The translations under genes were made by a program, and so were the position numbers. From Candidatus Woesearchaeota archaeon (lineage in GTDB: Archaea; Nanobdellota; Nanobdellia; Pacearchaeales; GW2011-AR1): DNA of 64,000 nucleotides. Positions 3,671 through 25,314 of the stretch are shown here, one piece after another (the first letter of the stretch is position 1; each line of letters begins with the position of its first letter). Location of the stretch: assembly GCA_964530945.1 (NCBI GenBank), contig CAZHCJ010000002.1, positions 14,899 to 78,898 on the forward strand, written 5' to 3'. Under the pieces are notes generated by a model that ran no database searches, was not told the origin of the DNA, and saw nothing but the letters and a program-made list of their open reading frames with translations.

Positions 3671-6133
3671 ATGGCTAAAAAATCAGATTATACAGGGAAA
3701 GACATTCATGTTTTAGAAGGGCTTGAAGGTGTTCGAAAACGTCCTGCAATGTACATAGGGGGAACGGGCAAAGACGGATTGCATCACATGATTTACGAGG
3801 TGGTGGATAATGCTGTAGATGAAGCTCTTGCGGGATATTGCAAAAAAATTCTTGTACGTATAAACAAAGATGGAAGTGTAACAATAGAAGATGATGGTAG
3901 GGGAATCCCTGTAGACAAACATCCTAAGTTGAAAATTCCTGCTGTCGAAGTCGCACTAACTAAGCTTCATGCAGGGGGAAAATTTGATAAAAAATCTTAT
4001 GAAATATCTGGAGGTTTGCACGGTGTTGGTATAAGTGTTGTTAATGCCTTGTCCAAGAAACTTGTTGTGGAGATTAAACGTGATGGGAAAATATACAGGC
4101 AAGAGTATAGGCGCGGAAAAAGAGAGAACGCACTGAAACCAGTGGGAAAAACAAAAGAGACAGGGACTAAAATTACATTCTGGCCAGATGAAGAGATTTT
4201 CTCAACACTGAAATTCGATTACCTAACTCTTCAAACACGTCTACGCGAAATAGTCTTCTTAAATGCGGGTTTGAAAATTTTGTTGGTTGATGAAGAAAAA
4301 AAGAAGAAAAAAGAGTTCTTTGCTTCTGGAGGATTAATAGAATTTGTTAAGTGGATAAACAAATCAAAAGATGTTTTACATAGTAAACCAATTTATTTTA
4401 AAAAAGTAGAAGGAGATAATGTTGTAGAAGTTGCAATCCAATACAATAATTCTTATCAGACAAATATATTTGGTTTTGTTAACACTATAAACACTGTTGA
4501 AGGAGGGACGCATGTATCTGGATTTAAATCTGGTTTAACCAGGGTAATAAATGATTATGTGAAGCGTAAGAATCTTCTTAAGACAGGCTCGCTCCATGGA
4601 AATGATGTTCGCGAAGGAGTTACAGCTATTATTAGTATAAAGATGAAAGAGCCCCAGTTCGAAGGACAAACTAAAACCAAATTGGGAAATAGTGAGATGA
4701 ACGGTATTGTCAATTCAATAATTACTCAATCATTGGGAGAGTTTTTTGAGGAAAATCCGAGCATTGCTAAGAAAATAACTTCCAAATCTATAGATTCTGC
4801 TAAAGCGCGTTTGGCTGCAAAAAAAGCCAAAGATCTTGTAAGAAGGAAGAACGCCTTTTCTCTTGGCGGCTTGCCTGGAAAACTTACGGATTGTTCAAGC
4901 AAAAAATCTGATCGCTCAGAAATTTATATTGTAGAAGGAGAAAGTGCTGGAGGTTGTTTTTCTGGAGAAACGAAGGTTGCTCTTACTGATGGAAGAGATA
5001 TTTCTTTTAAACAACTTGTTAAAGAAAATAAAGAAGGAAAAAAGAATTTTGTTTACACAATAATGAGAGATGGAAAATTAGGTATAGAGGAAATAAAAAA
5101 TCCAAGAATTACTAAAAAAAATGCTGAAGTAATTAAAATAATATTGGATAATGACGAAGAGATAGTTTGTACACCAGACCATAAATTTATGTTAAGAAAT
5201 GGAAATTATAAAGAGGCCGAACATTTAACGAAAAATGATTCTCTTATGCCTCTATATAGAAAACACTCTAAAATAGGGGAAAATATAACTATAGAAGGTT
5301 ACGAAATGGTACTTGACTCTAAAAGAAAATGGATATTTACCCACATGTTGGCAGACGAATACAATCTCCGAAATAAAATAGATGATAAAAAACAGATGTT
5401 AGAAGCAGTAAATGAATATAATCATAAAATAAAAAAAATCTTAAAATTAAAAAAGAAGATTGATGTTTATGATATGGAAATTCCAAATACACATAATTTT
5501 GCTCTTTCCTCTGGTGTTTTCGTGCATAATAGCGCAAAGATGGCGCGAAACAGAGAAATCCAGGCGATATTGCCATTAAGAGGAAAAATTCTTAATGTTG
5601 AAAAATCAACACCTGTAAAAGTTTTTTCAAACACTGAAATTGCGAACCTAATTACTGCAATAGGTGCGGGCGTAGGGGATGAATTTAATTTAGATAAAAT
5701 AAGATACAATAAAGTAGTCATCATGACTGATGCCGATGTTGATGGAGAGCATATCAAAACTCTGTTGTTAACCTTCTTCTTTAGGTTTATGCCTGAACTT
5801 ATTGAAAACGGGCATATTTATGTTGCTTTGCCTCCTTTGTATAGGATTAGGAAAGGTAACAAGGACAAATATGTTTACTCGGATAAAGAATTAGAAAAAG
5901 TTAAGAGCAAGCATAAAAATGTCAAAGTTACACGCTTCAAGGGTTTAGGAGAGATGAGTTCTAATCAGCTTTGGGACACGACAATGAATCCAAAAACCCG
6001 TAAAATCAAGAAGGTTTACATTGAAGATGCTGTTGAAGCAGATCAAACATTCAGTATGCTCATGGGGAGTGATGTCCAAGCCAGAAAAGAATATATTCAA
6101 GAAAATGCACAGGAGGCGACTTTAGACGTTTAA
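3671..6133 (+). CDS. gyrB: DNA gyrase subunit B, interrupted by a mini-intein (extein about 628 aa)
   Basis: GHKL ATPase N-terminus (HHMIYEVVDNAVDEALAG), Toprim EGESAGG|..|SAKMARNRE, PLYRIRKG and C-terminal QENAQEATLDV; 820 aa is about 190 aa longer than an intein-free GyrB. Confidence 0.92.
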   Translation: MAKKSDYTGKDIHVLEGLEGVRKRPAMYIGGTGKDGLHHMIYEVVDNAVDEALAGYCKKILVRINKDGSVTIEDDGRGIPVDKHPKLKIPAVEVALTKLHAGGKFDKKSYEISGGLHGVGISVVNALSKKLVVEIKRDGKIYRQEYRRGKRENALKPVGKTKETGTKITFWPDEEIFSTLKFDYLTLQTRLREIVFLNAGLKILLVDEEKKKKKEFFASGGLIEFVKWINKSKDVLHSKPIYFKKVEGDNVVEVAIQYNNSYQTNIFGFVNTINTVEGGTHVSGFKSGLTRVINDYVKRKNLLKTGSLHGNDVREGVTAIISIKMKEPQFEGQTKTKLGNSEMNGIVNSIITQSLGEFFEENPSIAKKITSKSIDSAKARLAAKKAKDLVRRKNAFSLGGLPGKLTDCSSKKSDRSEIYIVEGESAGGCFSGETKVALTDGRDISFKQLVKENKEGKKNFVYTIMRDGKLGIEEIKNPRITKKNAEVIKIILDNDEEIVCTPDHKFMLRNGNYKEAEHLTKNDSLMPLYRKHSKIGENITIEGYEMVLDSKRKWIFTHMLADEYNLRNKIDDKKQMLEAVNEYNHKIKKILKLKKKIDVYDMEIPNTHNFALSSGVFVHNSAKMARNREIQAILPLRGKILNVEKSTPVKVFSNTEIANLITAIGAGVGDEFNLDKIRYNKVVIMTDADVDGEHIKTLLLTFFFRFMPELIENGHIYVALPPLYRIRKGNKDKYVYSDKELEKVKSKHKNVKVTRFKGLGEMSSNQLWDTTMNPKTRKIKKVYIEDAVEADQTFSMLMGSDVQARKEYIQENAQEATLDV
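4955..5530 (+). mobile_element. mini-intein (192 aa) inserted in the GyrB Toprim motif EGxSAGG^S
   Basis: Begins with Cys right after EGESAGG (CFSGETKVAL, block A), has a TPDHKF block B and terminal ...NTHNFALSSGVFVHN, followed by +1 Ser (SAKMAR); too short for a LAGLIDADG endonuclease domain. Confidence 0.8.
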
Positions 6134-6135
6134 AG

Positions 6136-6378
6136 ATGGAAGAAAATAATTTACCTGAAACTGGAGAAAAATATAGGCATTTTAAGGGAGGAGTTGTGGA
6201 GATAGATTGCGTGGCAAGAGATACAGATGAACCTAAAAGAAGATTAGTGGCATATCATTATACTGAAGATAATGAAGGAAATCATCTGGGAGATTATTGG
6301 GCGCGTTCGTTAGATGAATTTTTAGAATTTAAAGAATTAAATGGAGAAAAGATTAAACGTTTCAAAAAATTAGAGTAA
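6136..6378 (+). CDS. DUF1653-like small protein
   Basis: KYRHFKGGVVEI...VAYH...DYWARSLDEF resembles the conserved DUF1653 core (YRHYKG...W.RP...F). Confidence 0.5.
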   Translation: MEENNLPETGEKYRHFKGGVVEIDCVARDTDEPKRRLVAYHYTEDNEGNHLGDYWARSLDEFLEFKELNGEKIKRFKKLE

Positions 6379-6734
6379 TGGCGTTAAAAACACCCGACTG
6401 GATACTTGAGGGATATGATTCAAAGAGCGATTGGGCTAAGAAAAACCCCGAAAAGGCTGCTGTCCAGTCGATAGAGAAACCAAAAAATAAGAAAGGGAAG
6501 AAAAAATCTAAGAAAAGCAAATCAAGAGATGAAGACCTTTCAAAAAAGAAGTTCAAAGTTCGACGTTGCCCCAAGTGCGATAGCGATGAGGTTAAAGTTG
6601 TTGTAGAGAGGGATGCTAAAGGAGATTGGGAGTGTAAAGAATGTGGATGGACAGGCAAAAAACCAAATATGGAAGAACTTACCGAAGAGGAATTCATGAA
6701 ATATTTAGATGAAAAAGGGGAGGAGGTAGCTTAA
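6378..6734 (+). CDS. zinc-ribbon protein with lysine-rich linker
   Basis: CPKCDSDE...CKECGW (C-x2-C x18 C-x2-C), N-terminal K-rich tract. Confidence 0.45.
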   Translation: MALKTPDWILEGYDSKSDWAKKNPEKAAVQSIEKPKNKKGKKKSKKSKSRDEDLSKKKFKVRRCPKCDSDEVKVVVERDAKGDWECKECGWTGKKPNMEELTEEEFMKYLDEKGEEVA

Positions 6735-6735
6735 A

Positions 6736-6993
6736 ATGGTAAAAGAACTAATAGAAAAATTTGAAGAATTGGATAAAATTATGAATTGCGATTTACCAGA
6801 TGAACTTCCGCAAGAGGTAGATGAGATGTTTCAAGCAGCATATAGATTATGGGGAAAATATAGGTTTAAGATTGAAAGGGGGAACAGAATAAGTTCCAGA
6901 GAAGAAAGAGAATTTTCAAATCTTTTAGATAATATAGAAGAAAGGTTTGAATACATTAGAGATGGTATCTATGGGGTGGTTTTTGCAAGATAA
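6736..6993 (+). CDS. hypothetical protein
   Basis: 85-aa ORF directly upstream of gyrA. Confidence 0.3.
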
Positions 6994-7003
6994 AAATATA
7001 AAA

Positions 7004-9457
7004 ATGACATCAAAAAAGAAAAAGGCGAAGGAAATTGCAACATTGTCAGAAAAAGATAATATAATTAACTCAGAGATATCTGAAGAAATGAAGAAGGCTT
7101 ATTTGGATTATGCGATGAGCGTCATTGTTTCTCGTGCTATTCCAAGTATTGAAGACGGATTGAAACCTGTGCAGAGAAGAATTTTACATAGTATGAATCT
7201 TATGGGTTTGAAGCCTGGGAGTCAAACAAAAAAATCCGCAAGAATTGTCGGAGATGTTATAGGTAAGTATCATCCTCATGGAGATAGCGCAGTGTATGAT
7301 GCCATGGTAAGAATGGCTCAAAACTTTTCTCTTAGGTATCCTTTAGTTTTTGGGCAAGGAAATTTTGGAAGCATTGATGGAGATGGTCCGGCTGCCTACA
7401 GATATACAGAAAGTCGTTTGATGCCCATAGCTAAAGAGCTGTTGGAAGACATAGATAAAAACACGGTTAAATTTGTTTCAAATTTTGACAACTCTCTCGA
7501 AGAGCCAAAACTTTTACCAGGAAAACTTCCTGCCCTTATTTTGAATGGGGCAACAGGTATTGCGGTTGGGATGAGCACAAACATTCCTCCCCATAACTTA
7601 AGCGAAGTTAGTGATGCAATAATCGAATACATAAAAAACCCAGATATTTCTATTGAAGAGCTTCATGAAATTGTGAAAGGTCCTGACTTTCCTACAGGGG
7701 GACACGTAACAGGAGATATTTTAAAAATATATCAAACTGGAAAAGGAAGGTTGACTATGCGCGGGCGTACAGAGATTGAGAAGAAAAAGAAAAAAGAACT
7801 TGTTGTTATAACAGAGATTCCTTATTTGCTTAACAAAACTACATTGATAGAACAAATTGCAAAGATAATTCAAGATAAAAAAATAAAGAATGTTAAAGAT
7901 TTGCGTGACGAGAGTTCAAAAGGCAAGATACGCATTGTTCTTGAATTGAAAAAAGGCACAAATCCTAAATTTGTTGTTAACTCACTTTATAAATATACTC
8001 GGTTGCAGGACTATTTCAATGTTAAAAATTTGGCGTTGGTTAGAGGGCAACCAAAAGTTTTGAGTTTGAAGGATTTTGTTTCTGAATATGTTGATTATAG
8101 AAAAAAGATAATTACCCGTAGCACACAATTTGATTTGAATCGTGCGGAACAGCGTTTAGAGATAGTTGAAGGATTAATGATTGCATTAAAAAATATAGAT
8201 AAAATTATTTCTTATATTAAAAAATCTAAAGGTGCAAAAGAAGCTGAAGAGGGTTTGATGAAAACCTATAAACTTAGTCAGAGGCAGGCTAAAGCAGTTT
8301 TAGAGACAAAATTACAGCAACTTACCTCTTTAGAACAAGATAAGCTAAAGAAAGAAAATGAAGAACTTTCAAATGCAATAAAAGAATTTAAGAAAATTTT
8401 AGGAAGTGAGAAAGAAATTTTAAAGATAATTACTAATGAAGTTAAAGATTTGAAGAAAAAGTATGGCGATGCTCGAAGGACAAATGTTTTGGATAAAATT
8501 AAGAAAATTTCTGAGAAAGATGTTGTTCAAAAGAAAGATGTTGTTATCACAATAACCGAGAAAGGATATTGCAAACGTATGGATTTAAATACCTATAGAG
8601 AACAACGTAGAGGAGGTAAAGGAGTAAGAGGAAGCAACCTTGCGACGGGGGATTTTGTAAAACAGTTAATCACGTGTTCTACACACGATTATTTAATGTT
8701 TTTCACAACTCGTGGACGTGTGCTTTGGTTGAAAGCGTACGATATTCCTGAAGCAATGAGGTATAGTAAAGGGAAAGCAATTGTGAATTTATTGAACTTA
8801 AAAAATGAGAAAATTACAAGTGTAATCCCTGTTAATAATTTTGATGATTTCTTGTTCATGGCTACAAAGAAAGGTCAAGTGAAAAAGATATCTCTTGAAA
8901 AATTCTCTAGGCCAAGAAAAGGAGGAATTAAGGCAATGAAACTTCCTAAAGACAACTCAGACATGTTGATAGATGTCAAAGTTGTTTCAAAAGATCATGA
9001 AGTGTTTTTAGCTACAAAGAAAGGTCAAGCAATTCGTTTTTCAAGCAAAGAGGTTAGGGACATGGGGCGTGCAAGTTATGGAGTTATAGGAATAAAACTA
9101 GCAAAGGGAGATGAAGTTGTAAGCCTAGAGGTGTTGGACGAGAGTGCAGGAGATGCAATACTTACTATAACAGAGAAAGGTTACGGTAAGAGAACGGCTT
9201 TGAAAAATTATAGAAAAATTTCTAGAAGTGGCAAGGGAGTAATAAATCTTAAAACTTCAAACGTCACAGGAGATGTTGTAACGACGAGTTTCGTTAATGA
9301 TAAGGATAGCATAATTATTACGACATATAAAGGAATGGTAATACGAACTACGTTGAAAAATATACGTCGCATGGGTCGCGCTACTCGTGGAGTACGTATT
9401 GTAAAGCTTCAACCAGGAGATAAAGCTACTGACTTGGTTAAAGTTCCTGAAGAGTGA
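7004..9457 (+). CDS. gyrA: DNA gyrase subunit A
   Basis: [11 protein letters not shown]...[39 protein letters not shown] active-site region, GyrA-box-like C-terminal beta-pinwheel repeats; start taken at ATG 7004 (MTSKKKK) rather than track start 6947. Confidence 0.92.
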
Positions 9458-9517
9458 GTTCTGAAACATCTTTTTGAAACTAATAATCTTTTTAAATTAT
9501 GAATCGTATCTGCATTT

Positions 9518-9799
9518 ATGACAAGTGAAAATAGTGAATATAGACAATATCAAGTGGCAGTAGAATATGATAGTACTAGAGTTGGAGAAATTATTGGTGC
9601 AGGATTCGATAAAAAAGAAGGTTTGCAAATAGTGGGGCTAGGAGGAGCTTTTGATTTATCAGGTAGAGGATATGTTCTTGATGCCCATTTTTTCTATATA
9701 GGGCCAGAAGAAGATGCAAACACTTTTGCTGATAGGATGAGGGAAACTGGACTTGCAAAAGCAATCCATGTAGATCCCGTTTCGGATAGATTATCTTAA
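9518..9799 (+). CDS. hypothetical protein
   Basis: 93-aa ORF. Confidence 0.3.
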   Translation: MTSENSEYRQYQVAVEYDSTRVGEIIGAGFDKKEGLQIVGLGGAFDLSGRGYVLDAHFFYIGPEEDANTFADRMRETGLAKAIHVDPVSDRLS

Positions 9800-10578
9800 C
9801 TCTCAGAATTATTCCAAGCAGGACAAATATCTTTATATTCGCACCAATCACAGAGAACAGATTTGTTTGGAGGAAAGTGTGTTGTTGATTCTATTTCTTT
9901 TATCAATTCAAGAGTTTCTTTTTTAAGTTGTTTGAGTTGTTCGTTCGTTCTTTTTGATACAACTTTTTGATTATGTGCGAGAAAATGCCATATTAATTTT
10001 ACGGGCTTGTCTTCCCCAAACTTTTCTTTGATAGCAATTGAGTAAAGTGCTAGTTGTCTGTCTTGTTCACCATGGTTGTGTCTTGGTTGACTGTTACTTG
10101 TTTTGTAGTCATGTATTTCTAGTGTGTCACGCTCGAGGTCATGAACCAATCGGTCTATGAAACCTACTAGTTTAGTGTTTTCATCTAGGTCAATATAAAT
10201 CTTTTTTTCTATATCTATAGTGTTGTCATCAAAGGGTTTGTTTTGGAAGTAGTAATCCAGAAGAAAATGTATTCCTTTATTAAAATAATCTTCATGAGTC
10301 TTTCCTGGTTTTACTATAACCATTTTTGGATTGAATTCTTCTTTCCATATTTCGGCGTATTTTTTAATCAAGTCATCGACTTCAGGAAAACTATTTCCTT
10401 CATGGCTTTTTAATTTATTGTAAAACCATTCTAATGTACTATGAACAGAGCTTCCTAAATGAGCTTCAATACTTTTTTCAATCTTAGGAATGATTTTGTC
10501 AATGTAGCGAAATTTGTATTTAAGCTTGCATTGTTCAAAAGTAGAAAGTTTTGAATGCGAGTAAAACTTTATTGCCAT
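9796..10578 (-). CDS. PD-(D/E)XK nuclease, Cas4/RecB-like with Fe-S cysteine cluster (stand-alone)
   Basis: N-terminal Cys (FEQCKLKY), D..E.K core (GFIDRLVHD ... LEIHDYKTS), C-terminal CDWCEYKDICP (C-x2-C-x5-C): the Cas4/AddB-type 4Fe-4S arrangement; no cas genes or CRISPR nearby. Confidence 0.65.
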   Translation of the reverse strand: MAIKFYSHSKLSTFEQCKLKYKFRYIDKIIPKIEKSIEAHLGSSVHSTLEWFYNKLKSHEGNSFPEVDDLIKKYAEIWKEEFNPKMVIVKPGKTHEDYFNKGIHFLLDYYFQNKPFDDNTIDIEKKIYIDLDENTKLVGFIDRLVHDLERDTLEIHDYKTSNSQPRHNHGEQDRQLALYSIAIKEKFGEDKPVKLIWHFLAHNQKVVSKRTNEQLKQLKKETLELIKEIESTTHFPPNKSVLCDWCEYKDICPAWNNSES

Positions 10579-10631
10579 TAAATGAAAAACAAGAAGATGT
10601 TTATAAGTTTTTATTAGAATTTGGGAATTGT

Positions 10632-11714
10632 TTAATCGTTGGCTTCTGTCTCGGTTTCGCTTTCAGCCTCTATATCATTGGCCAGAAATCCCCACCAAGG
10701 TGCATTTTCTTGTAGAACTTCTCCTGTTTCAGAGTTTAATCTGAGTCTGAGACGCTCTTTTATTTTGAACAACCCTAAGAAACGTGCTTCTTTTCTTACT
10801 TCTGCCCTGTATTCTCCTTCTTCATCAAGTTCTATCTCTGTTTCGTTTTCATTGATTCTAGCTTCCAAGTGCGCTTTTATCTTTTCCATAACTTCTCCCG
10901 GGAGGACTTCAATTAAACGAGTTTCGTTATCTTTGAAAATTCCGTATACGCTTCTATTGTGGTGGTAAAGGGTAACGTTTGTTGAAGCATTAATGTTCTT
11001 TGATTGGATGATTATGTTTCCTGATTTTCCTGCATGGATTGTCATTGTTCTTTCTGTTTCCATTTTTCTAGTGATTTTAATTTTTATTTCCGCTTCTTCA
11101 TTTTCGGAAACTAACGAGGAAACTTCCTCGACAATTTCTTGTGTTAATGTCAATTGTTCTTCTGTCAAATCGCCTTTAGTTTCACTTTCAATATCTATCT
11201 CGCCATCATCTGTTTCTGCTTCTAATTCAAATTCTGCTTCGTACTCTAATGCATTGAAACTCTCTCTTAATTCTGTAATCGTCTCTCTCAATTCTTCTGA
11301 AAGGTCCACATTGCTTTCAATATCTATTTTTGTCCTTAATTTTTCTTGTGCTTGACATTTTAAAACAGCGCCAGTCCTATTACACCCTTCGGGAGAGCTT
11401 GCATTGTTTTGAGAATGAATTCTTAATCTGTTGCTTTCTTTCAATGCTTCTTGGAATCTTTCCCTAATTCTTTCAGCTTCTGCACCTTTTGCTTTTATCT
11501 TAATCTTTCTCTTTTCTCCTTCTGATTCAATCTCAATCTTTACTTCAGTATCTTCTTCCTCGATTTCTTCACCAACAATCGCATTGATTATATTCTCTCT
11601 TGCAGCCCTTTCTTTTTCTTCTGATCCGTTATCTTGTGCTAAAGTTAAAGGAATTCCCAGAACTATTCCTAATAAAAGAAGGATTGCGAAAAAGGTGAAC
11701 ACTCTTTTTTCCAT
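10632..11714 (-). CDS. secreted, highly acidic Glu-rich protein with N-terminal signal/TM segment
   Basis: N-terminal hydrophobic segment FAILLLLGIVLGIPLTLA then E/K-rich low-complexity. Confidence 0.55.
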   Translation of the reverse strand: MEKRVFTFFAILLLLGIVLGIPLTLAQDNGSEEKERAARENIINAIVGEEIEEEDTEVKIEIESEGEKRKIKIKAKGAEAERIRERFQEALKESNRLRIHSQNNASSPEGCNRTGAVLKCQAQEKLRTKIDIESNVDLSEELRETITELRESFNALEYEAEFELEAETDDGEIDIESETKGDLTEEQLTLTQEIVEEVSSLVSENEEAEIKIKITRKMETERTMTIHAGKSGNIIIQSKNINASTNVTLYHHNRSVYGIFKDNETRLIEVLPGEVMEKIKAHLEARINENETEIELDEEGEYRAEVRKEARFLGLFKIKERLRLRLNSETGEVLQENAPWWGFLANDIEAESETETEAND

Positions 11715-17996: not shown

Positions 17997-18077
17997 CGCC
18001 CATGGCAGGAATCGAACCTGCGAGCCCAAACGGGCCGACCGTTCCAGGGTCGTGCAATACCACTATGCGACATGGGC
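17997..18077 (-). tRNA. tRNA-Ser (anticodon GGA), type II with long variable arm
   Basis: Minus-strand GCCCATG..anticodon stem CGACC/GGTCG with loop CTGGAAC (GGA)..variable stem-loop GCCCGTTTGGGC..T-arm GCAGG TTCGATT CCTGC..CATGGGC G. Confidence 0.8.
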
Positions 18078-20969: not shown

Positions 20970-21215
20970 ATATGGTTAAGGTTATTTTTAAAGGTTTTTA
21001 GAGCGTTTCTATAGCTAGTTATATTCCTGCACCTAAATATTTAAAAGTATTATTTAAGTAGTGGGTTTATGGAAAGAATGTCTTTAAAATTGAATGAAGG
21101 TGATAAGAATAAAATAAGCCTCGAAAAAGTAAAGACCGAGATTAAAGAAAAAACAGAACGGGATTTGATAAGATTTAGGACTTGTTGTGCTGATTGCAGA
21201 GCCAGCCGATAAACC

Positions 21216-21623
21216 ATGCCTATTGAATTCTTAGATAGGTTGGGTAATTCTTTAGAACTTCCCTTCAAGAAAGGTGAAAGTGTAAAAAAAGTCTTATCGA
21301 GACATTTTATCCCTGTGGATTCCGTAATGATATATTTAGGGGATAAAATCATAAATGAAGATTATGTTTTATACAAGGAAGACGAAGAAATTTTTGTTAG
21401 GCTTATAGAAGGTTTTGATATAGTTTCTTTAATAAAAAATTTAAAAAAAGAAGTCAAATCGAGCTCTAAAGAGATATACAAAAAAAAGACCTTATCAATA
21501 AATAGGTTTGGAGATGTAAAAATGAATATTGAAAATATGTCTCCAGAACGGTTGAAAGAGTATGTCGAAGAGGTTTTTTTTGAAACTGTTATGGAATCCA
21601 GAATAATGATAGGATTGTTTTAG
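21216..21623 (+). CDS. N-terminal beta-grasp (MoaD/ThiS/TGS-like) domain ORF, likely the 5' part of the downstream PP-loop ATPase gene
   Basis: Frame ends ...ESRIMIGLF* while the next frame simultaneously reads NNDRIVLGLSGGIDS; see finding. Confidence 0.4.
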   Translation: MPIEFLDRLGNSLELPFKKGESVKKVLSRHFIPVDSVMIYLGDKIINEDYVLYKEDEEIFVRLIEGFDIVSLIKNLKKEVKSSSKEIYKKKTLSINRFGDVKMNIENMSPERLKEYVEEVFFETVMESRIMIGLF

Positions 21624-22417
21624 GTTTATCTGGAGGGATCGATAGCACATCCATGCTCCTGCTTTTAAGTACCTTAAAGGAGAGATTACCCTCTTTTGAA
21701 ATATTTGCAGTTACTTATGATGATTTTAAGGGAAAGGAAGATCCCACTTACAATTATATAAAGGATTTAGCTGATTTTTTTGGAATAAATCATGAGATAA
21801 TAACTGAAAAGGAAATCATGTCTTTATTTAATCTTAAGATATCTCCAAAGAAAATTTTTAAAAATCTTATGAAAACAGAAGATGCCGATAAAGTTATGTA
21901 TGCAGATCATCATGTAATGAGAAGGACAATTGAGGCTTTTGCTGAAGAAAATAAAATCAAAAAAATTTTCTTAGGGTTACATGCTTCAGACATAATTGCG
22001 GGATTTTTGAACAGTTACATCACAGGATATGTTTCCAATCCGGCACCTAGAAGAATTGTGGGAGATTTTGAATATATGCTCCCATTATGTAACCTAACAA
22101 AGAAAGAGTTAAAAATCTATTCGAGTGTGAATAAATTGACACATATATCCTCTTCCGAGATAAACTCTTGGGAAATAAATCCTTTAGATTGTAATCTATA
22201 TTATTATTTAGCCGATCAGCTACAATTTTTTTGGCCAAATATCCATTCGTGGCTTATAGAAGGCCATAAAAGATTGTTTAAAAACTTAAGAAAAGAAGAT
22301 TATGTTCTTTGTAAAAATTGCAGGTCTCCTATCTTACCCCAGTCTAGAGACAAAATCTCCTTATGTGATGTATGTAAATTATTTGAGAAACATAATTATC
22401 TTCAGAGTAAGTTTTAA
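21584..22417 (+). CDS. PP-loop (adenine nucleotide alpha hydrolase) ATPase domain with C-terminal zinc-ribbon cysteines; no in-frame start codon for its SGGxDS motif
   Basis: RIVLGLSGGIDSTSMLLLL PP-loop motif lies upstream of the first ATG (21653) of this frame; C-terminal CKNCRSP...CDVCKLF. Confidence 0.55.
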   Translation, partial: NCYGIQNNDRIVLGLSGGIDSTSMLLLLSTLKERLPSFEIFAVTYDDFKGKEDPTYNYIKDLADFFGINHEIITEKEIMSLFNLKISPKKIFKNLMKTEDADKVMYADHHVMRRTIEAFAEENKIKKIFLGLHASDIIAGFLNSYITGYVSNPAPRRIVGDFEYMLPLCNLTKKELKIYSSVNKLTHISSSEINSWEINPLDCNLYYYLADQLQFFWPNIHSWLIEGHKRLFKNLRKEDYVLCKNCRSPILPQSRDKISLCDVCKLFEKHNYLQSKF

Positions 22418-22441
22418 ATACAATTATAGCGTGTTTGAGGT

Positions 22442-23707
22442 ATGATCGACATAAAGTATATTCAGGAAAATCCCAAGGTGATAAAATATTCCGTAAAGGC
22501 AAGAGAGTTGGACGTGAATGTAGATTTACTTTTAAAAAAGTATGAAGAATGGAAAAAACTGAAAAAAGACCTAGATAATTTGCGTAGGGAACGGAATGTT
22601 TTAAGTGAAAAAGTTAATGAAGCAAAGAAAAAGAAAAAAGATTTCAAGAAATTTATAAAGCAGAGTAGAGAAAATAACAAAAAACTTGAGCAGACGGAAA
22701 CAAAAGTAAAAAAAGTTTGGAAAGAGTATGAAAGATTAGCTTACAAAATACCGAATGTACTCCATAAAGATGTTCCTATAAGTGATAAAGATAGGGTTGA
22801 TTGGGAAAGCAAAATCAAGAAACCCAAATTTAATTTTAAACCAAAAACAAATTGGGAAATTCTAGTAGATACAGACATGGCTGATTTCAATAGGGCCATT
22901 AAGGCAGCAGGAGATAGAGGCTGGATGCTAAAAGGAGATGCCGCTAGACTAAATAGAGCCATCACAAATTTTGTTTTGGATTTTTGGAGAAAGAAGGGTT
23001 ATTTTGAATTAATTCCTCCCTATTATGTGAACGAAGAAAATCTTTACATAACAGGGCACTATCCGGGAGGAGAAGAAGAGGTTTACAAAACAGAAGATGG
23101 AAAAGTTTTTGTTGGAACGGGAGAAATTTCTGTTTTGGCAGTTTTCAAAAATGATATTTTCAATAAAAAAGAACTTCCAAAAAAATTCATGTGTTATACT
23201 CCTTGTTATCGTAGAGAGGCGGGGAATCATGCAGATGATAAAGGATTGTATAGAACGCACCAATTTGATAAAGTTGAGCTTACGCATATAACGACCCCGG
23301 AAAAGGAAGAAAAAGAGTACAATCAAATTTTTGAAGATGCAAAAGAGCTTTACAAAATATTGGGTTTGCCACACAGAATCATTACCCATAGAGCAAACGA
23401 TATGCCAAATAAAGCCACCCTAGAAAAAGATATTGAAATTTATATGTCTGCAGAAGAGAGATGGGGGGAAGCAGCAAGTATTGGAATGACGGCAAGTTTT
23501 CAAGCAAGAAGAGGAAACATACAATTTGTTGGGGAAGGAAAAAAAGAATTTGTGCACACGATTTATGCAACAGGAGGCGTGGCAAATAGAATTTTAATAG
23601 CAATTTTAAATAATTTTCAAAACAAAGACGGCTCTGTTAACATTCCAAAAGTTTTACAGAAATATATGGGCAAGAAGAAAATTGTCGGAAAGAAAAAACT
23701 TAAATAA
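22442..23707 (+). CDS. serS: seryl-tRNA synthetase
   Basis: N-terminal coiled coil, class II motifs (ARLNRAITNFVLDFW, FMCYTPCYRREAGNHADDKGLYRTHQFDKVEL, GEGKKEFVHTIYATG). Confidence 0.92.
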   Translation: MIDIKYIQENPKVIKYSVKARELDVNVDLLLKKYEEWKKLKKDLDNLRRERNVLSEKVNEAKKKKKDFKKFIKQSRENNKKLEQTETKVKKVWKEYERLAYKIPNVLHKDVPISDKDRVDWESKIKKPKFNFKPKTNWEILVDTDMADFNRAIKAAGDRGWMLKGDAARLNRAITNFVLDFWRKKGYFELIPPYYVNEENLYITGHYPGGEEEVYKTEDGKVFVGTGEISVLAVFKNDIFNKKELPKKFMCYTPCYRREAGNHADDKGLYRTHQFDKVELTHITTPEKEEKEYNQIFEDAKELYKILGLPHRIITHRANDMPNKATLEKDIEIYMSAEERWGEAASIGMTASFQARRGNIQFVGEGKKEFVHTIYATGGVANRILIAILNNFQNKDGSVNIPKVLQKYMGKKKIVGKKKLK

Positions 23708-24511: not shown

Positions 24512-24976
24512 ATGACATATACTGAAATTAAAAAGAGAAATGGAAAGAAATATTATTATAGGGTTAGATCTGTCAGAAAAGGGAAGAAAGTTCAGAAAGA
24601 AAGAAAATATCTTGGAGTTAATCTTTCTAAAATTGATTTAAGCAAAAAAGAAAAAGAAGCAGATATTTCTTTAAATAGAAATAAAGAAAATAAAGAATTA
24701 GAAAAGATAAAACAGAAAATCAAAGAAGTTCTTAAGAAAAATAAAGTAAAAAGAGCAGGAATATTTGGAAGTTATTCAAGAGGAGATCAACGAAAAAATA
24801 GTGATATTGATATCTTGATTGAAGTAAAAGGAAGAAAATTTAGTTTATTTGATTTAGTTGGACTTGAGATGGAACTAAAAGAAATATTGAAAAGAGATGT
24901 TGATCTTTTAACATATTCTGGAATCCACCCTCTTTTAAAAGAAAGGATATTAAATGAAGAAGTAAGAATAATATGA
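24512..24976 (+). CDS. MNT-type nucleotidyltransferase (HepT/MntA system antitoxin) with K-rich N-terminal extension
   Basis: GIFGSYSRGDQRKNSDIDILIEV ... DLLTY is the minimal nucleotidyltransferase (GSx9-13Dx[DE]) fold. Confidence 0.75.
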   Translation: MTYTEIKKRNGKKYYYRVRSVRKGKKVQKERKYLGVNLSKIDLSKKEKEADISLNRNKENKELEKIKQKIKEVLKKNKVKRAGIFGSYSRGDQRKNSDIDILIEVKGRKFSLFDLVGLEMELKEILKRDVDLLTYSGIHPLLKERILNEEVRII

Positions 24977-25314
24977 AAAAAGATCCTTTAATATTTATTG
25001 AACATATTTTAGAAAGTATTATAGCTATAGAAGAATTTTCTAAAAATATAAGTAAAAAAGAATTAGGTTCAAATAGGTTGATACAAAGTGCAACTGTAAA
25101 AGAGATTGAAATTATTGGGGAAGCCACCAAGAACCTTTCTTTGAATTTCAGAGAAAAATATCCTGAAGTCCCTTGGAATAAAATTGCTGGAACAAGAGAT
25201 AAATTAAGTCATCATTATTTTGGAATCGATATAGGTATCATTTGGGATGTTATCAAAGAAGATATTCCGGTATTAAAAAAACAAATACAAAAAATTAGAA
25301 AGGATTTGGAATAA
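24973..25314 (+). CDS. HepT-like HEPN toxin (DUF86)
   Basis: C-terminal RDKLSHHYFGID (Rx4-6H HEPN motif); overlaps the MNT gene stop by 4 nt. Confidence 0.75.
   Translation: MKKDPLIFIEHILESIIAIEEFSKNISKKELGSNRLIQSATVKEIEIIGEATKNLSLNFREKYPEVPWNKIAGTRDKLSHHYFGIDIGIIWDVIKEDIPVLKKQIQKIRKDLE

Follow-up and report, generated by a model that had tools for sequence, protein, structure and literature searches.

PP-loop enzymes activate carboxyl or carbonyl groups by adenylation. The active site of TtuA receives the C-terminus of TtuB, and TilS adenylates its substrate and then accepts an amine nucleophile. In archaea, ThiS-family genes neighbour PP-loop ATPase genes (PMC2948915). Here, a gene related to these systems is described from a stretch of 64,000 nucleotides (nt), referred to below as the window, of a Candidatus Woesearchaeota archaeon (GenBank assembly GCA_964530945.1, contig CAZHCJ010000002.1, positions 14,899 to 78,898). 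At positions 21216-22417, a first open reading frame (ORF1) is overlapped by a second frame carrying the PP-loop motif SGGIDS. Judged by their relatives, the two are one ancestral gene of ~400 codons that is frameshifted here. The gene matters more than the break, as it belongs to a three-gene set common to archaea and bacteria, together with a small peptide ORF and a gene for seryl-tRNA synthetase (SerRS).

The joined protein resembles TtuA, NcsA (Ncs6/Ctu1) and TtcA in its SGGxDS motif, the helix preceding it, the fold (Foldseek E of ~1e-13 to 5ztb, 5mkp, 5b4e and 6scy, using the model of a homolog), a C-terminal CxxC...CxxC zinc ribbon and the partnership with a ThiS-type ubiquitin-like domain. 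Unlike in these enzymes, the three cysteines of the iron-sulfur (Fe-S) cluster are replaced by MY-x-DHH-x-RR and NPWE, a cysteine-free hairpin takes the place of the N-terminal zinc finger, and the ubiquitin-like domain is fused N-terminally and offers no free Gly-Gly. With TilS, the second-best structural match group, it shares a PP-loop domain without an Fe-S cluster, but it lacks the C-terminal tRNA-binding domains of TilS and ends in the zinc ribbon, whereas TilS has no beta-grasp domain, zinc ribbon or linked peptide. Its N-terminal domain is similar to ThiS, SAMP2, TtuB and Urm1 in its beta-grasp fold and at the level of sequence profiles; unlike these proteins, it is internal to a larger one, and the Gly-Gly position reads (I/V)EG(F/Y)D.

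Reading all three forward frames over 21215-22420 showed that ORF1 and the SGGIDS frame overlap by 37-40 nt and are out of frame with each other:

21216-21623, plus strand: ORF1, 135 amino acids (aa) from ATG 21216, ending ...ESRIMIGLF (...EEVFFETVMESRIMIGLF), stop TAG 21621-21623
21584 (opening) to 22415-22417 (stop), plus strand: PP-loop (SGGIDS) frame, beginning after TGA 21581-21583 and reading NCYGIQNNDRIVLGLSGGIDS
21584-21620, plus strand: interval of the reading-frame change, between TGA 21581-21583 of the downstream frame and TAG 21621-21623 of ORF1

This agrees with the preliminary description of the locus, in which the motif frame opened at TGA 21581-21583 with no start before SGGxDS and was preceded by a 135-aa ORF ending in ESRIMIGLF; only the overlap, put there at 30 nt, was too short. 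In the frame with RIVLGLSGGIDSTSM, ATG, GTG and TTG are absent ahead of the PP-loop motif SGGIDS (21629-21646). The earliest conventional start, ATG 21653, lies downstream of the motif and yields an ORF of 254 aa, and the source database keeps two separate proteins, the 254-aa ORF (P0001) and the 135-aa ORF1 (P0095). Relative to ORF1, the PP-loop frame is -1 (or +2), with (21584-21216) mod 3 = 2, and the +1 frame contains numerous stops. An alternative code with UGA as a sense codon was excluded, as the PP-loop frame contains many other stops further upstream. Moreover, UGA terminates gyrA, a DEAD-box helicase and other long genes of the window and is therefore a stop codon in this organism. 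No active enzyme can be expected from the gene as sequenced, because ORF1 stops before SGGxDS and the sole conventional start downstream (21653) comes after the motif.

The two frames were then joined and used as a query against 5.8 billion proteins. P0002 (401 aa, 53% identity), P0003 (422 aa), P0005 and P0006 (399 aa each) are single proteins that cover 98-99% of the joined query. When 1.84 billion cluster representatives were searched exhaustively with a profile, 89 proteins came up at E<=1e-30, and 65 of the best matches are full-length single-ORF relatives (370-450 aa, whole profile matched). The enzyme ORF is likewise uninterrupted in metagenome-assembled genomes (MAGs) of Candidatus Ainarchaeum (locus L002), Verrucomicrobiota (L003) and Streptosporangiaceae (L004), in the isolate Micromonospora sp. 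HNM0581 (L005) and in a marine archaeal contig (L016). No frameshift was present in the 65 full-length relatives or in any fetched locus with a complete gene, all of these relatives being at most 54% identical. Because every one of the 65 has a single ORF of ~400 aa, the locus is read as one gene broken by a frameshift. It suits two of the explanations offered in the preliminary description, a pseudogene and a sequencing error; that description had also proposed to compare orthologs for single fused genes (65/65 are uninterrupted).

The alignment across the junction agrees with this, since part of the PP-loop domain is encoded in the ORF1 frame:

21540-21599, plus strand: helix alpha-1 of the PP-loop domain, ORF1 frame, SPERLKEYVEEVFFETVMES, aligning with EEHFKEYFERKVSRTIERYKLL of TtuA PH0300

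It is the family profile that aligns this segment of Pyrococcus TtuA to the C-terminus of ORF1, and the counterpart of the helix in the homolog P0004 is YVEETFMETLLTE. After joining both frames, the alignment to the NCBIfam TtcA model begins at profile position 21 instead of 38. The locus is thus to be annotated as one disrupted gene rather than as proteins of 135 and 254 aa. Another member of the family, P0101 (255 aa), is normal up to the strand before SGG and continues in an unrelated glycine-rich sequence; it may come from a chimeric contig or be another disrupted copy.

A genuine split of the gene into a beta-grasp-plus-helix protein and a PP-loop protein translated from a non-canonical start (ATC 21596 or ATT 21614) is very unlikely. 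Both codons are in frame upstream of SGGIDS, and the known systems encode ubiquitin-like carriers separately from TtuA/NcsA (PMC2948915), but none of the homologs is divided at this point, no Shine-Dalgarno-like sequence is seen before ATC or ATT on direct reading, and helix alpha-1 would be parted from its own domain.

A programmed -1 ribosomal frameshift, or transcriptional slippage, giving the full-length fusion would make use of the fact that the frames overlap by ~37 nt and are intact on both sides; it is nevertheless the least credible of the explanations, with a probability close to nil. No slippery X XXY YYZ heptamer occurs in 21584-21620, and at the only such site nearby, T TTT TTT at 21575, a slip leads straight to TGA 21581-21583. 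A run of eight T (T8, 21574-21581), just before the frameshift region, amounts, in the ORF1 frame, to a perfect slippery site (U UUU UUU). Since a slip at this run reads TGA 21581-21583, it cannot join the two frames. Folding of 131 nt of RNA from 21570 gave a minimum free energy of -26.6 kcal/mol, compared to a mean of -27.6 for shuffled sequences (z=0.26), and an Rfam search of the whole window returned two tRNAs only, with no element at the junction. Furthermore, 0/65 full-length homologs need a shift, and the joined product would still be ~3 residues short in a near-constant linker. The programmed +1 shift considered in the preliminary description falls with these results, with the additional objection that the change is in the -1 direction and the +1 frame is closed.

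Next, the nature of the lesion was examined. The conserved Glu of Y-V-E and LSGG are 22 residues apart in 57 of the 65 relatives (range 20-26), while the same segment measures 56 nt in the window, i.e. 18 2/3 codons, and is 10 nt short. ORF1 is homologous to the family through ETVMES (cf. ETLLTE in P0004) and the -1 frame from IQNNDRIVLG onwards; the two stretches overlap by 4 nt, with two residues lost between them, which makes a single 10-nt deletion the most economical account. Most simply, 10 nt would have been deleted near 21594-21602, where a linker connects helix alpha-1 to the PP-loop strand. For the TTGTTTTA region, in which an indel was proposed earlier, there is no specific evidence, the homology placing the break at ~21594-21602 and the loss at 10 nt rather than 1. 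The ~400-codon gene would then be interrupted by a small, non-programmed lesion that leaves its downstream part in the -1 frame. The window protein retains every one of the 66 invariant columns of a six-sequence alignment. As both halves are otherwise intact, this suggests a lesion that is recent or artefactual; if real, it may be recent or be carried by only part of the sequenced population. It also appears isolated, given the full-length domain matches of other window genes (Kae1, L7Ae, S28e, gyrB, gyrA, aIF5B, a Kef-type antiporter, SerRS and two helicases).

An assembly or sequencing artefact, with an intact ~400-codon gene in the real genome and a consensus that lost 1 or 10 nt, is possible, although we lean against it. 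It would explain why both halves have no further stops and keep every family-invariant residue and why the peptide and SerRS partner genes are intact, and the source is one metagenome-derived contig (83,766 bp) with no second copy on record. However, 21584-21620 contains no homopolymer longer than 4 nt, a change in length of the T8 run cannot rescue the frame as TGA follows it, the other window genes tested show no frameshift, and a loss of 10 nt is untypical of base-calling error. Rescue by a length change at 21574-21581 was ruled out case by case, T9 and T6 reading TGA and T7 leading to TAA. For the same locus in other assemblies, exact-protein look-ups of the 254-aa ORF, ORF1 and the SerRS returned nothing. 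A gapped DNA pattern had no match in metagenome contigs, and a scan of metagenome contigs for related loci gave only a TARA fragment and one distant match. Whether it reflects a broken gene or a flaw of the assembly, the frameshift as such is nothing unusual.

Once joined, the intact enzyme has the following parts:

21216-21419, plus strand: N-terminal ubiquitin-like beta-grasp domain, ORF1 residues 1-68, ending in the conserved IEGFD (21405-21419)
21420-21539, plus strand: linker and cysteine-free beta-hairpin, containing IYKKKTLSINRFGDVKMNIE, at the position of the TtuA N-terminal zinc finger
21596-22417, plus strand: rest of the enzyme in the -1 frame, with SGGIDS at 21629-21646 and the stop at 22415-22417
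21869-21925, plus strand: motif MKTEDADKVMYADHHVMRR in place of the Fe-S CxxC
21971-22012, plus strand: motif LGLHASDIIAGFLN in the -1 frame
22163-22189, plus strand: motif NSWEINPLD in the -1 frame
22310-22375, plus strand: C-terminal zinc ribbon CKNC-x16-CDVC

A profile of the first ~70 residues of 45 sequences matched the beta-grasp proteins 1ryj (E=7e-7), SAMP2 (5lda_B, 8e-5), PF1061 (1e-4) and TtuB (0.015), and Pfam ULD_2 weakly. The beta-grasp domain, placed at the C-terminus of ORF1 in the preliminary description, therefore occupies the N-terminal ~66 residues instead, the C-terminus being the helix before the PP-loop strand. An AlphaFold2 (AF2) model was made of the homolog P0002 (53% identical) rather than of the window protein, with a predicted local distance difference test (pLDDT) of 73.8 and a predicted template-modelling score (pTM) of 0.67. 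In this model, the N-terminal domain has the order strand-strand-helix-strand-strand, and the hairpin region appears as two short strands of low confidence. Conserved residues of the linker and hairpin are Y88, K90, L93 and G99, and the family profile aligns to PH0300 from residue 19 on. With its ubiquitin-like, PP-loop and C-terminal CxxC...CxxC parts, the fusion foreseen in the preliminary description is right for the family as a whole, as seen in the profiles, the model and the conserved cysteines.

Assignment of the PP-loop domain with profile models was successful only in part. Pfam gave the generic PP-loop family PF01171 only, and NCBIfam gave partial matches to TtcA, TilS, QueC and NcsA, all well under their cutoffs (TtcA 49.1 bits vs 272; NcsA 24.5 vs 500; TilS TIGR02432 32-34 vs 93.6). 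The closest solved structures are those of TtuA and NcsA/Ncs6: in a Foldseek search with the P0002 model, TtuA came first (E=8e-14, target-normalised template-modelling score 0.65-0.70; structures 5ztb, 5mkp, 5b4e and 5gha, E~1e-13), followed by NcsA (6scy, 1e-12) and then TilS (2e89, 3a2k). However, the NcsA motifs PCSFC and PCPYSC align to DAHKV..MY-x-DHH-x-RR and NPWE(L/I)NP, so that the [4Fe-4S] cysteines are missing. The four zinc-ribbon cysteines, which align to the C-terminal finger of NcsA, are 100% conserved in 66 aligned sequences, in which no other cysteine column reaches 40%. The end of the beta-grasp domain, (I/V)EG(F/Y)D, runs on into the polypeptide without a free Gly-Gly, and its Gly varies in the wider family, with RAY, ERY and RNY among the sequences at this point. 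Thiocarboxylation or conjugation of the domain would therefore require prior cleavage. The sulfur-transfer role first suggested, in the manner of TtuA/Ncs6, does not fit a family that lacks all three [4Fe-4S] cysteines and the free Gly-Gly. The enzyme is instead judged, from these motifs and matches, to be a divergent and uncharacterised branch of the TtuA/NcsA/TilS group and not a sulfur transferase. Those family members whose names were looked up are called 'hypothetical', 'ATP-binding' or 'asparagine synthase-related'.

Directly upstream of ORF1 lies a small ORF:

21069-21212, plus strand: 47-aa small ORF, MERMSLKLNEGDKNKISLEKVKTEIKEKTERDLIRFRTCCADCRASR, its stop 3 nt before the ATG of ORF1

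It ends in ...DLIRFRTCCADCRASR (...ERDLIRFRTCCADCRASR). Wherever upstream sequence is available, an ORF with the tail D[LIV][IVM]RFRTCCAD[CPV]RAS[KR] immediately precedes the enzyme gene, namely in the archaeal loci L001, L002, L011, L015 and L016, the bacterial loci L003 and L005, and L013/L014, and the enzymes of these loci are just 34-53% identical. Across loci, the peptide is 45-60 aa long, with a near-identical 16-residue tail that ends in Lys or Arg. In L005, the peptide ORF is at 5695-5892 and the enzyme gene (protein WP_169596553.1) at 5992-7194. A peptide profile search gave 249 protein clusters, including Kutzneria, Actinomadura, Nonomuraea, Spirillospora and Spongiactinospora; the tail was present in 16/16 members examined, and almost all of the clusters listed are named 'hypothetical'. 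NCBIfam has no model for the peptide. The UniRef label 'FXSXX-COOH protein', given to one such peptide, is a misfit, the Ser of the tail being at -2 and not at -3. No description of the peptide motif or of the cassette was found in the searchable literature, including the combinations PP-loop with SerRS and radical S-adenosylmethionine (SAM) enzyme, beta-grasp with PP-loop fusion, and ribosomally synthesised and post-translationally modified peptide (RiPP) with SerRS. The 47-aa ORF looks like a candidate precursor or scaffold peptide. As in RiPP and scaffold-peptide pathways, a short candidate precursor ORF with a conserved core adjoins the gene of a putative modifying enzyme. A TATA-like AT-rich element, ATATTTAAAAGT, was noted by eye at 21036-21047, ~25-30 nt upstream of ATG 21069, and its position is consistent with a possible leaderless archaeal transcript starting at the peptide gene.

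On the other side of the enzyme, the SerRS gene completes the set. It is linked in every locus with enough flanking sequence (the window, L001, L002, L003, L005, L013 and L016), with varying order and orientation:

Window, 22442-23707, plus strand: SerRS, 24 nt downstream of the enzyme (TIGR00414 serS, 365 bits vs cutoff 301.65)
L001, 3157-4446: SerRS, after a methyltransferase
L002, 3863-5149, minus strand: SerRS, divergent
L003, 2839-4119: SerRS, inside the operon
L005, 11342-12625: SerRS, inside the operon
L013, 6980-8533: SerRS of methanogen type (tRNA_bind_4 domain)
L016, 1229-2497: SerRS, upstream of the peptide-enzyme pair

The variable gene order and the methanogen type in L013 point to a linkage that would be functional rather than inherited. 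Based on these neighbourhoods, the peptide, the enzyme and SerRS are taken as a conserved cassette spanning Archaea and Bacteria. Around it, L003, L004, L005 and L013 each have two radical SAM/SPASM enzymes, weakly like anaerobic sulfatase maturase, viperin and DesII. Genes for a TauD-like oxygenase and an aldo-keto reductase are present besides in L003 and L013, and one for an M20 amidohydrolase in L004 and L005. None of the curated families names these radical SAM/SPASM, oxygenase, reductase or amidohydrolase genes, which span the following positions:

L003, 1318-7179: tailoring genes
L004, 1238-5242: tailoring genes
L005, ~7240-11196: tailoring genes
L013, 704-5360: tailoring genes

The archaeal loci carry a methyltransferase, and L016 also a metallophosphoesterase.

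From these parts, a mechanism can be proposed. The enzyme would use ATP to activate a carboxyl or carbonyl group in the C-terminal region of the peptide; this is suggested because PP-loop enzymes adenylate such groups and because the TtuB C-terminus enters the TtuA active site. The beta-grasp domain would help to hold the peptide, and SerRS would supply seryl-adenylate or seryl-tRNA as the nucleophile, protect the producer, or do both. The bacterial tailoring enzymes and the M20 peptidase would fit the logic of a scaffold peptide or of a Trojan horse. Tentatively, the cassette could thus belong to an undescribed peptide pathway of DPANN-like archaea, actinomycetes and Verrucomicrobiota, in which an Fe-S-free, TtuA-derived PP-loop enzyme activates the ...RFRTCCADxRAS(K/R) C-terminus and serine is appended or mimicked, an idea we regard as possible rather than probable. 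If serine is appended, the enzyme would be a non-LanB analogue of the peptide aminoacyl-tRNA ligases (PEARLs); if it is mimicked, the product would be a microcin-C-like seryl-adenylate inhibitor, with SerRS as the immunity protein. In evolutionary terms, the gene shows that a TtuA/NcsA-type tRNA thiolase scaffold was joined to its ubiquitin-like partner, lost its sulfur chemistry and then became coupled to a peptide and SerRS. Should the peptide be the substrate, this would mean a new enzyme class for the activation of peptide C-termini and a new link of aminoacyl-tRNA synthetases to peptide natural products or cofactors.

The main rival role for the intact enzyme would be the modification of tRNA-Ser, in the manner of TtcA (s2C32) or TilS (lysidine), for which the Cys-Cys peptide would serve as co-substrate or relay the sulfur. 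The closest solved relatives, TtuA, NcsA and TilS, all act on tRNA, TtcA is the best NCBIfam match, SerRS is linked wherever the flank is long enough, and there is a tRNA-Ser(GGA) gene in the window at a distance of 3 kb upstream. Yet the Fe-S ligands for TtuA/TtcA chemistry are absent, the radical SAM/SPASM, TauD-like, aldo-keto reductase and M20 (L004/L005) genes of the bacterial loci are typical of peptide or small-molecule pathways, and no tRNA gene occurs in 8 other loci, which leaves this role unlikely. The tRNA-Ser(GGA) gene itself is at 17997-18077 on the minus strand, and with tRNA genes in 0/8 homologous loci, its linkage to the cassette was treated as a coincidence.

Taken as a whole, one ancestral gene with a non-programmed lesion, together with the proposed roles of enzyme, peptide and SerRS, is the explanation we prefer, with a confidence slightly better than even. 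Several points weigh against it. The biochemical role is read wholly from the fold, the lost motifs and the gene neighbourhood. The archaeal loci are without the radical SAM and oxygenase genes of the bacterial loci, and the pathway may differ between the two. Regarding the lesion, the 10-nt deletion is deduced from relatives that are at most 54% identical, and there may instead be a 1-nt error in a loop that is naturally three residues shorter, as spacings of 20-21 do occur. Moreover, no reads and no relative of >90% identity were found that would separate a real mutation from an assembly error.

Among described peptide systems, microcin C (MccA and MccB) is similar in having a short ribosomal peptide beside an ATP-using enzyme and an aminoacyl-tRNA synthetase as contact point (PMC8323819), action on the C-terminus being for the present enzyme a proposal. 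In contrast to the PP-loop enzyme, MccB is E1/ThiF-like; the target of microcin C is AspRS, and the peptide here has 45-60 aa and an invariant tail of 16 residues with Lys or Arg at its end. PEARL/pearlin systems (TglA/TglB, AmmA) share with these loci a conserved scaffold peptide, reliance on a supply of aminoacyl-tRNA, tailoring enzymes and a peptidase that could release a C-terminal product (M20, in L004/L005). They differ in that the ATP-using enzyme here is a TtuA-like PP-loop protein and that the addition of serine to the peptide is hypothetical. No LanB-like PEARL enzyme turned up in any locus, although no search aimed at LanB-like enzymes was made. In the albomycin cluster, the SerRS AbmK supplies seryl-adenylate or seryl-tRNA and confers resistance (PMC8323819). 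A complete SerRS is encoded within a biosynthetic cluster there as well, but albomycin is a non-ribosomal siderophore-nucleoside conjugate without such a precursor peptide or PP-loop enzyme. Unlike AbmK, the linked SerRS of the archaea may be the sole SerRS of the genome.

Two other features of the window were noted away from the cassette:

3671-6133, plus strand: gyrB, containing an intein (Intein_splicing at residues 438-620) between the GyrB and Toprim domains
24512-25314, plus strand: genes for an MNT-like nucleotidyltransferase (154 aa) and a HepT-like ribonuclease (113 aa), overlapping by 4 nt, just after a tRNA-Asp gene

By its predicted domains, the latter is a typical HepT/MNT toxin-antitoxin pair.

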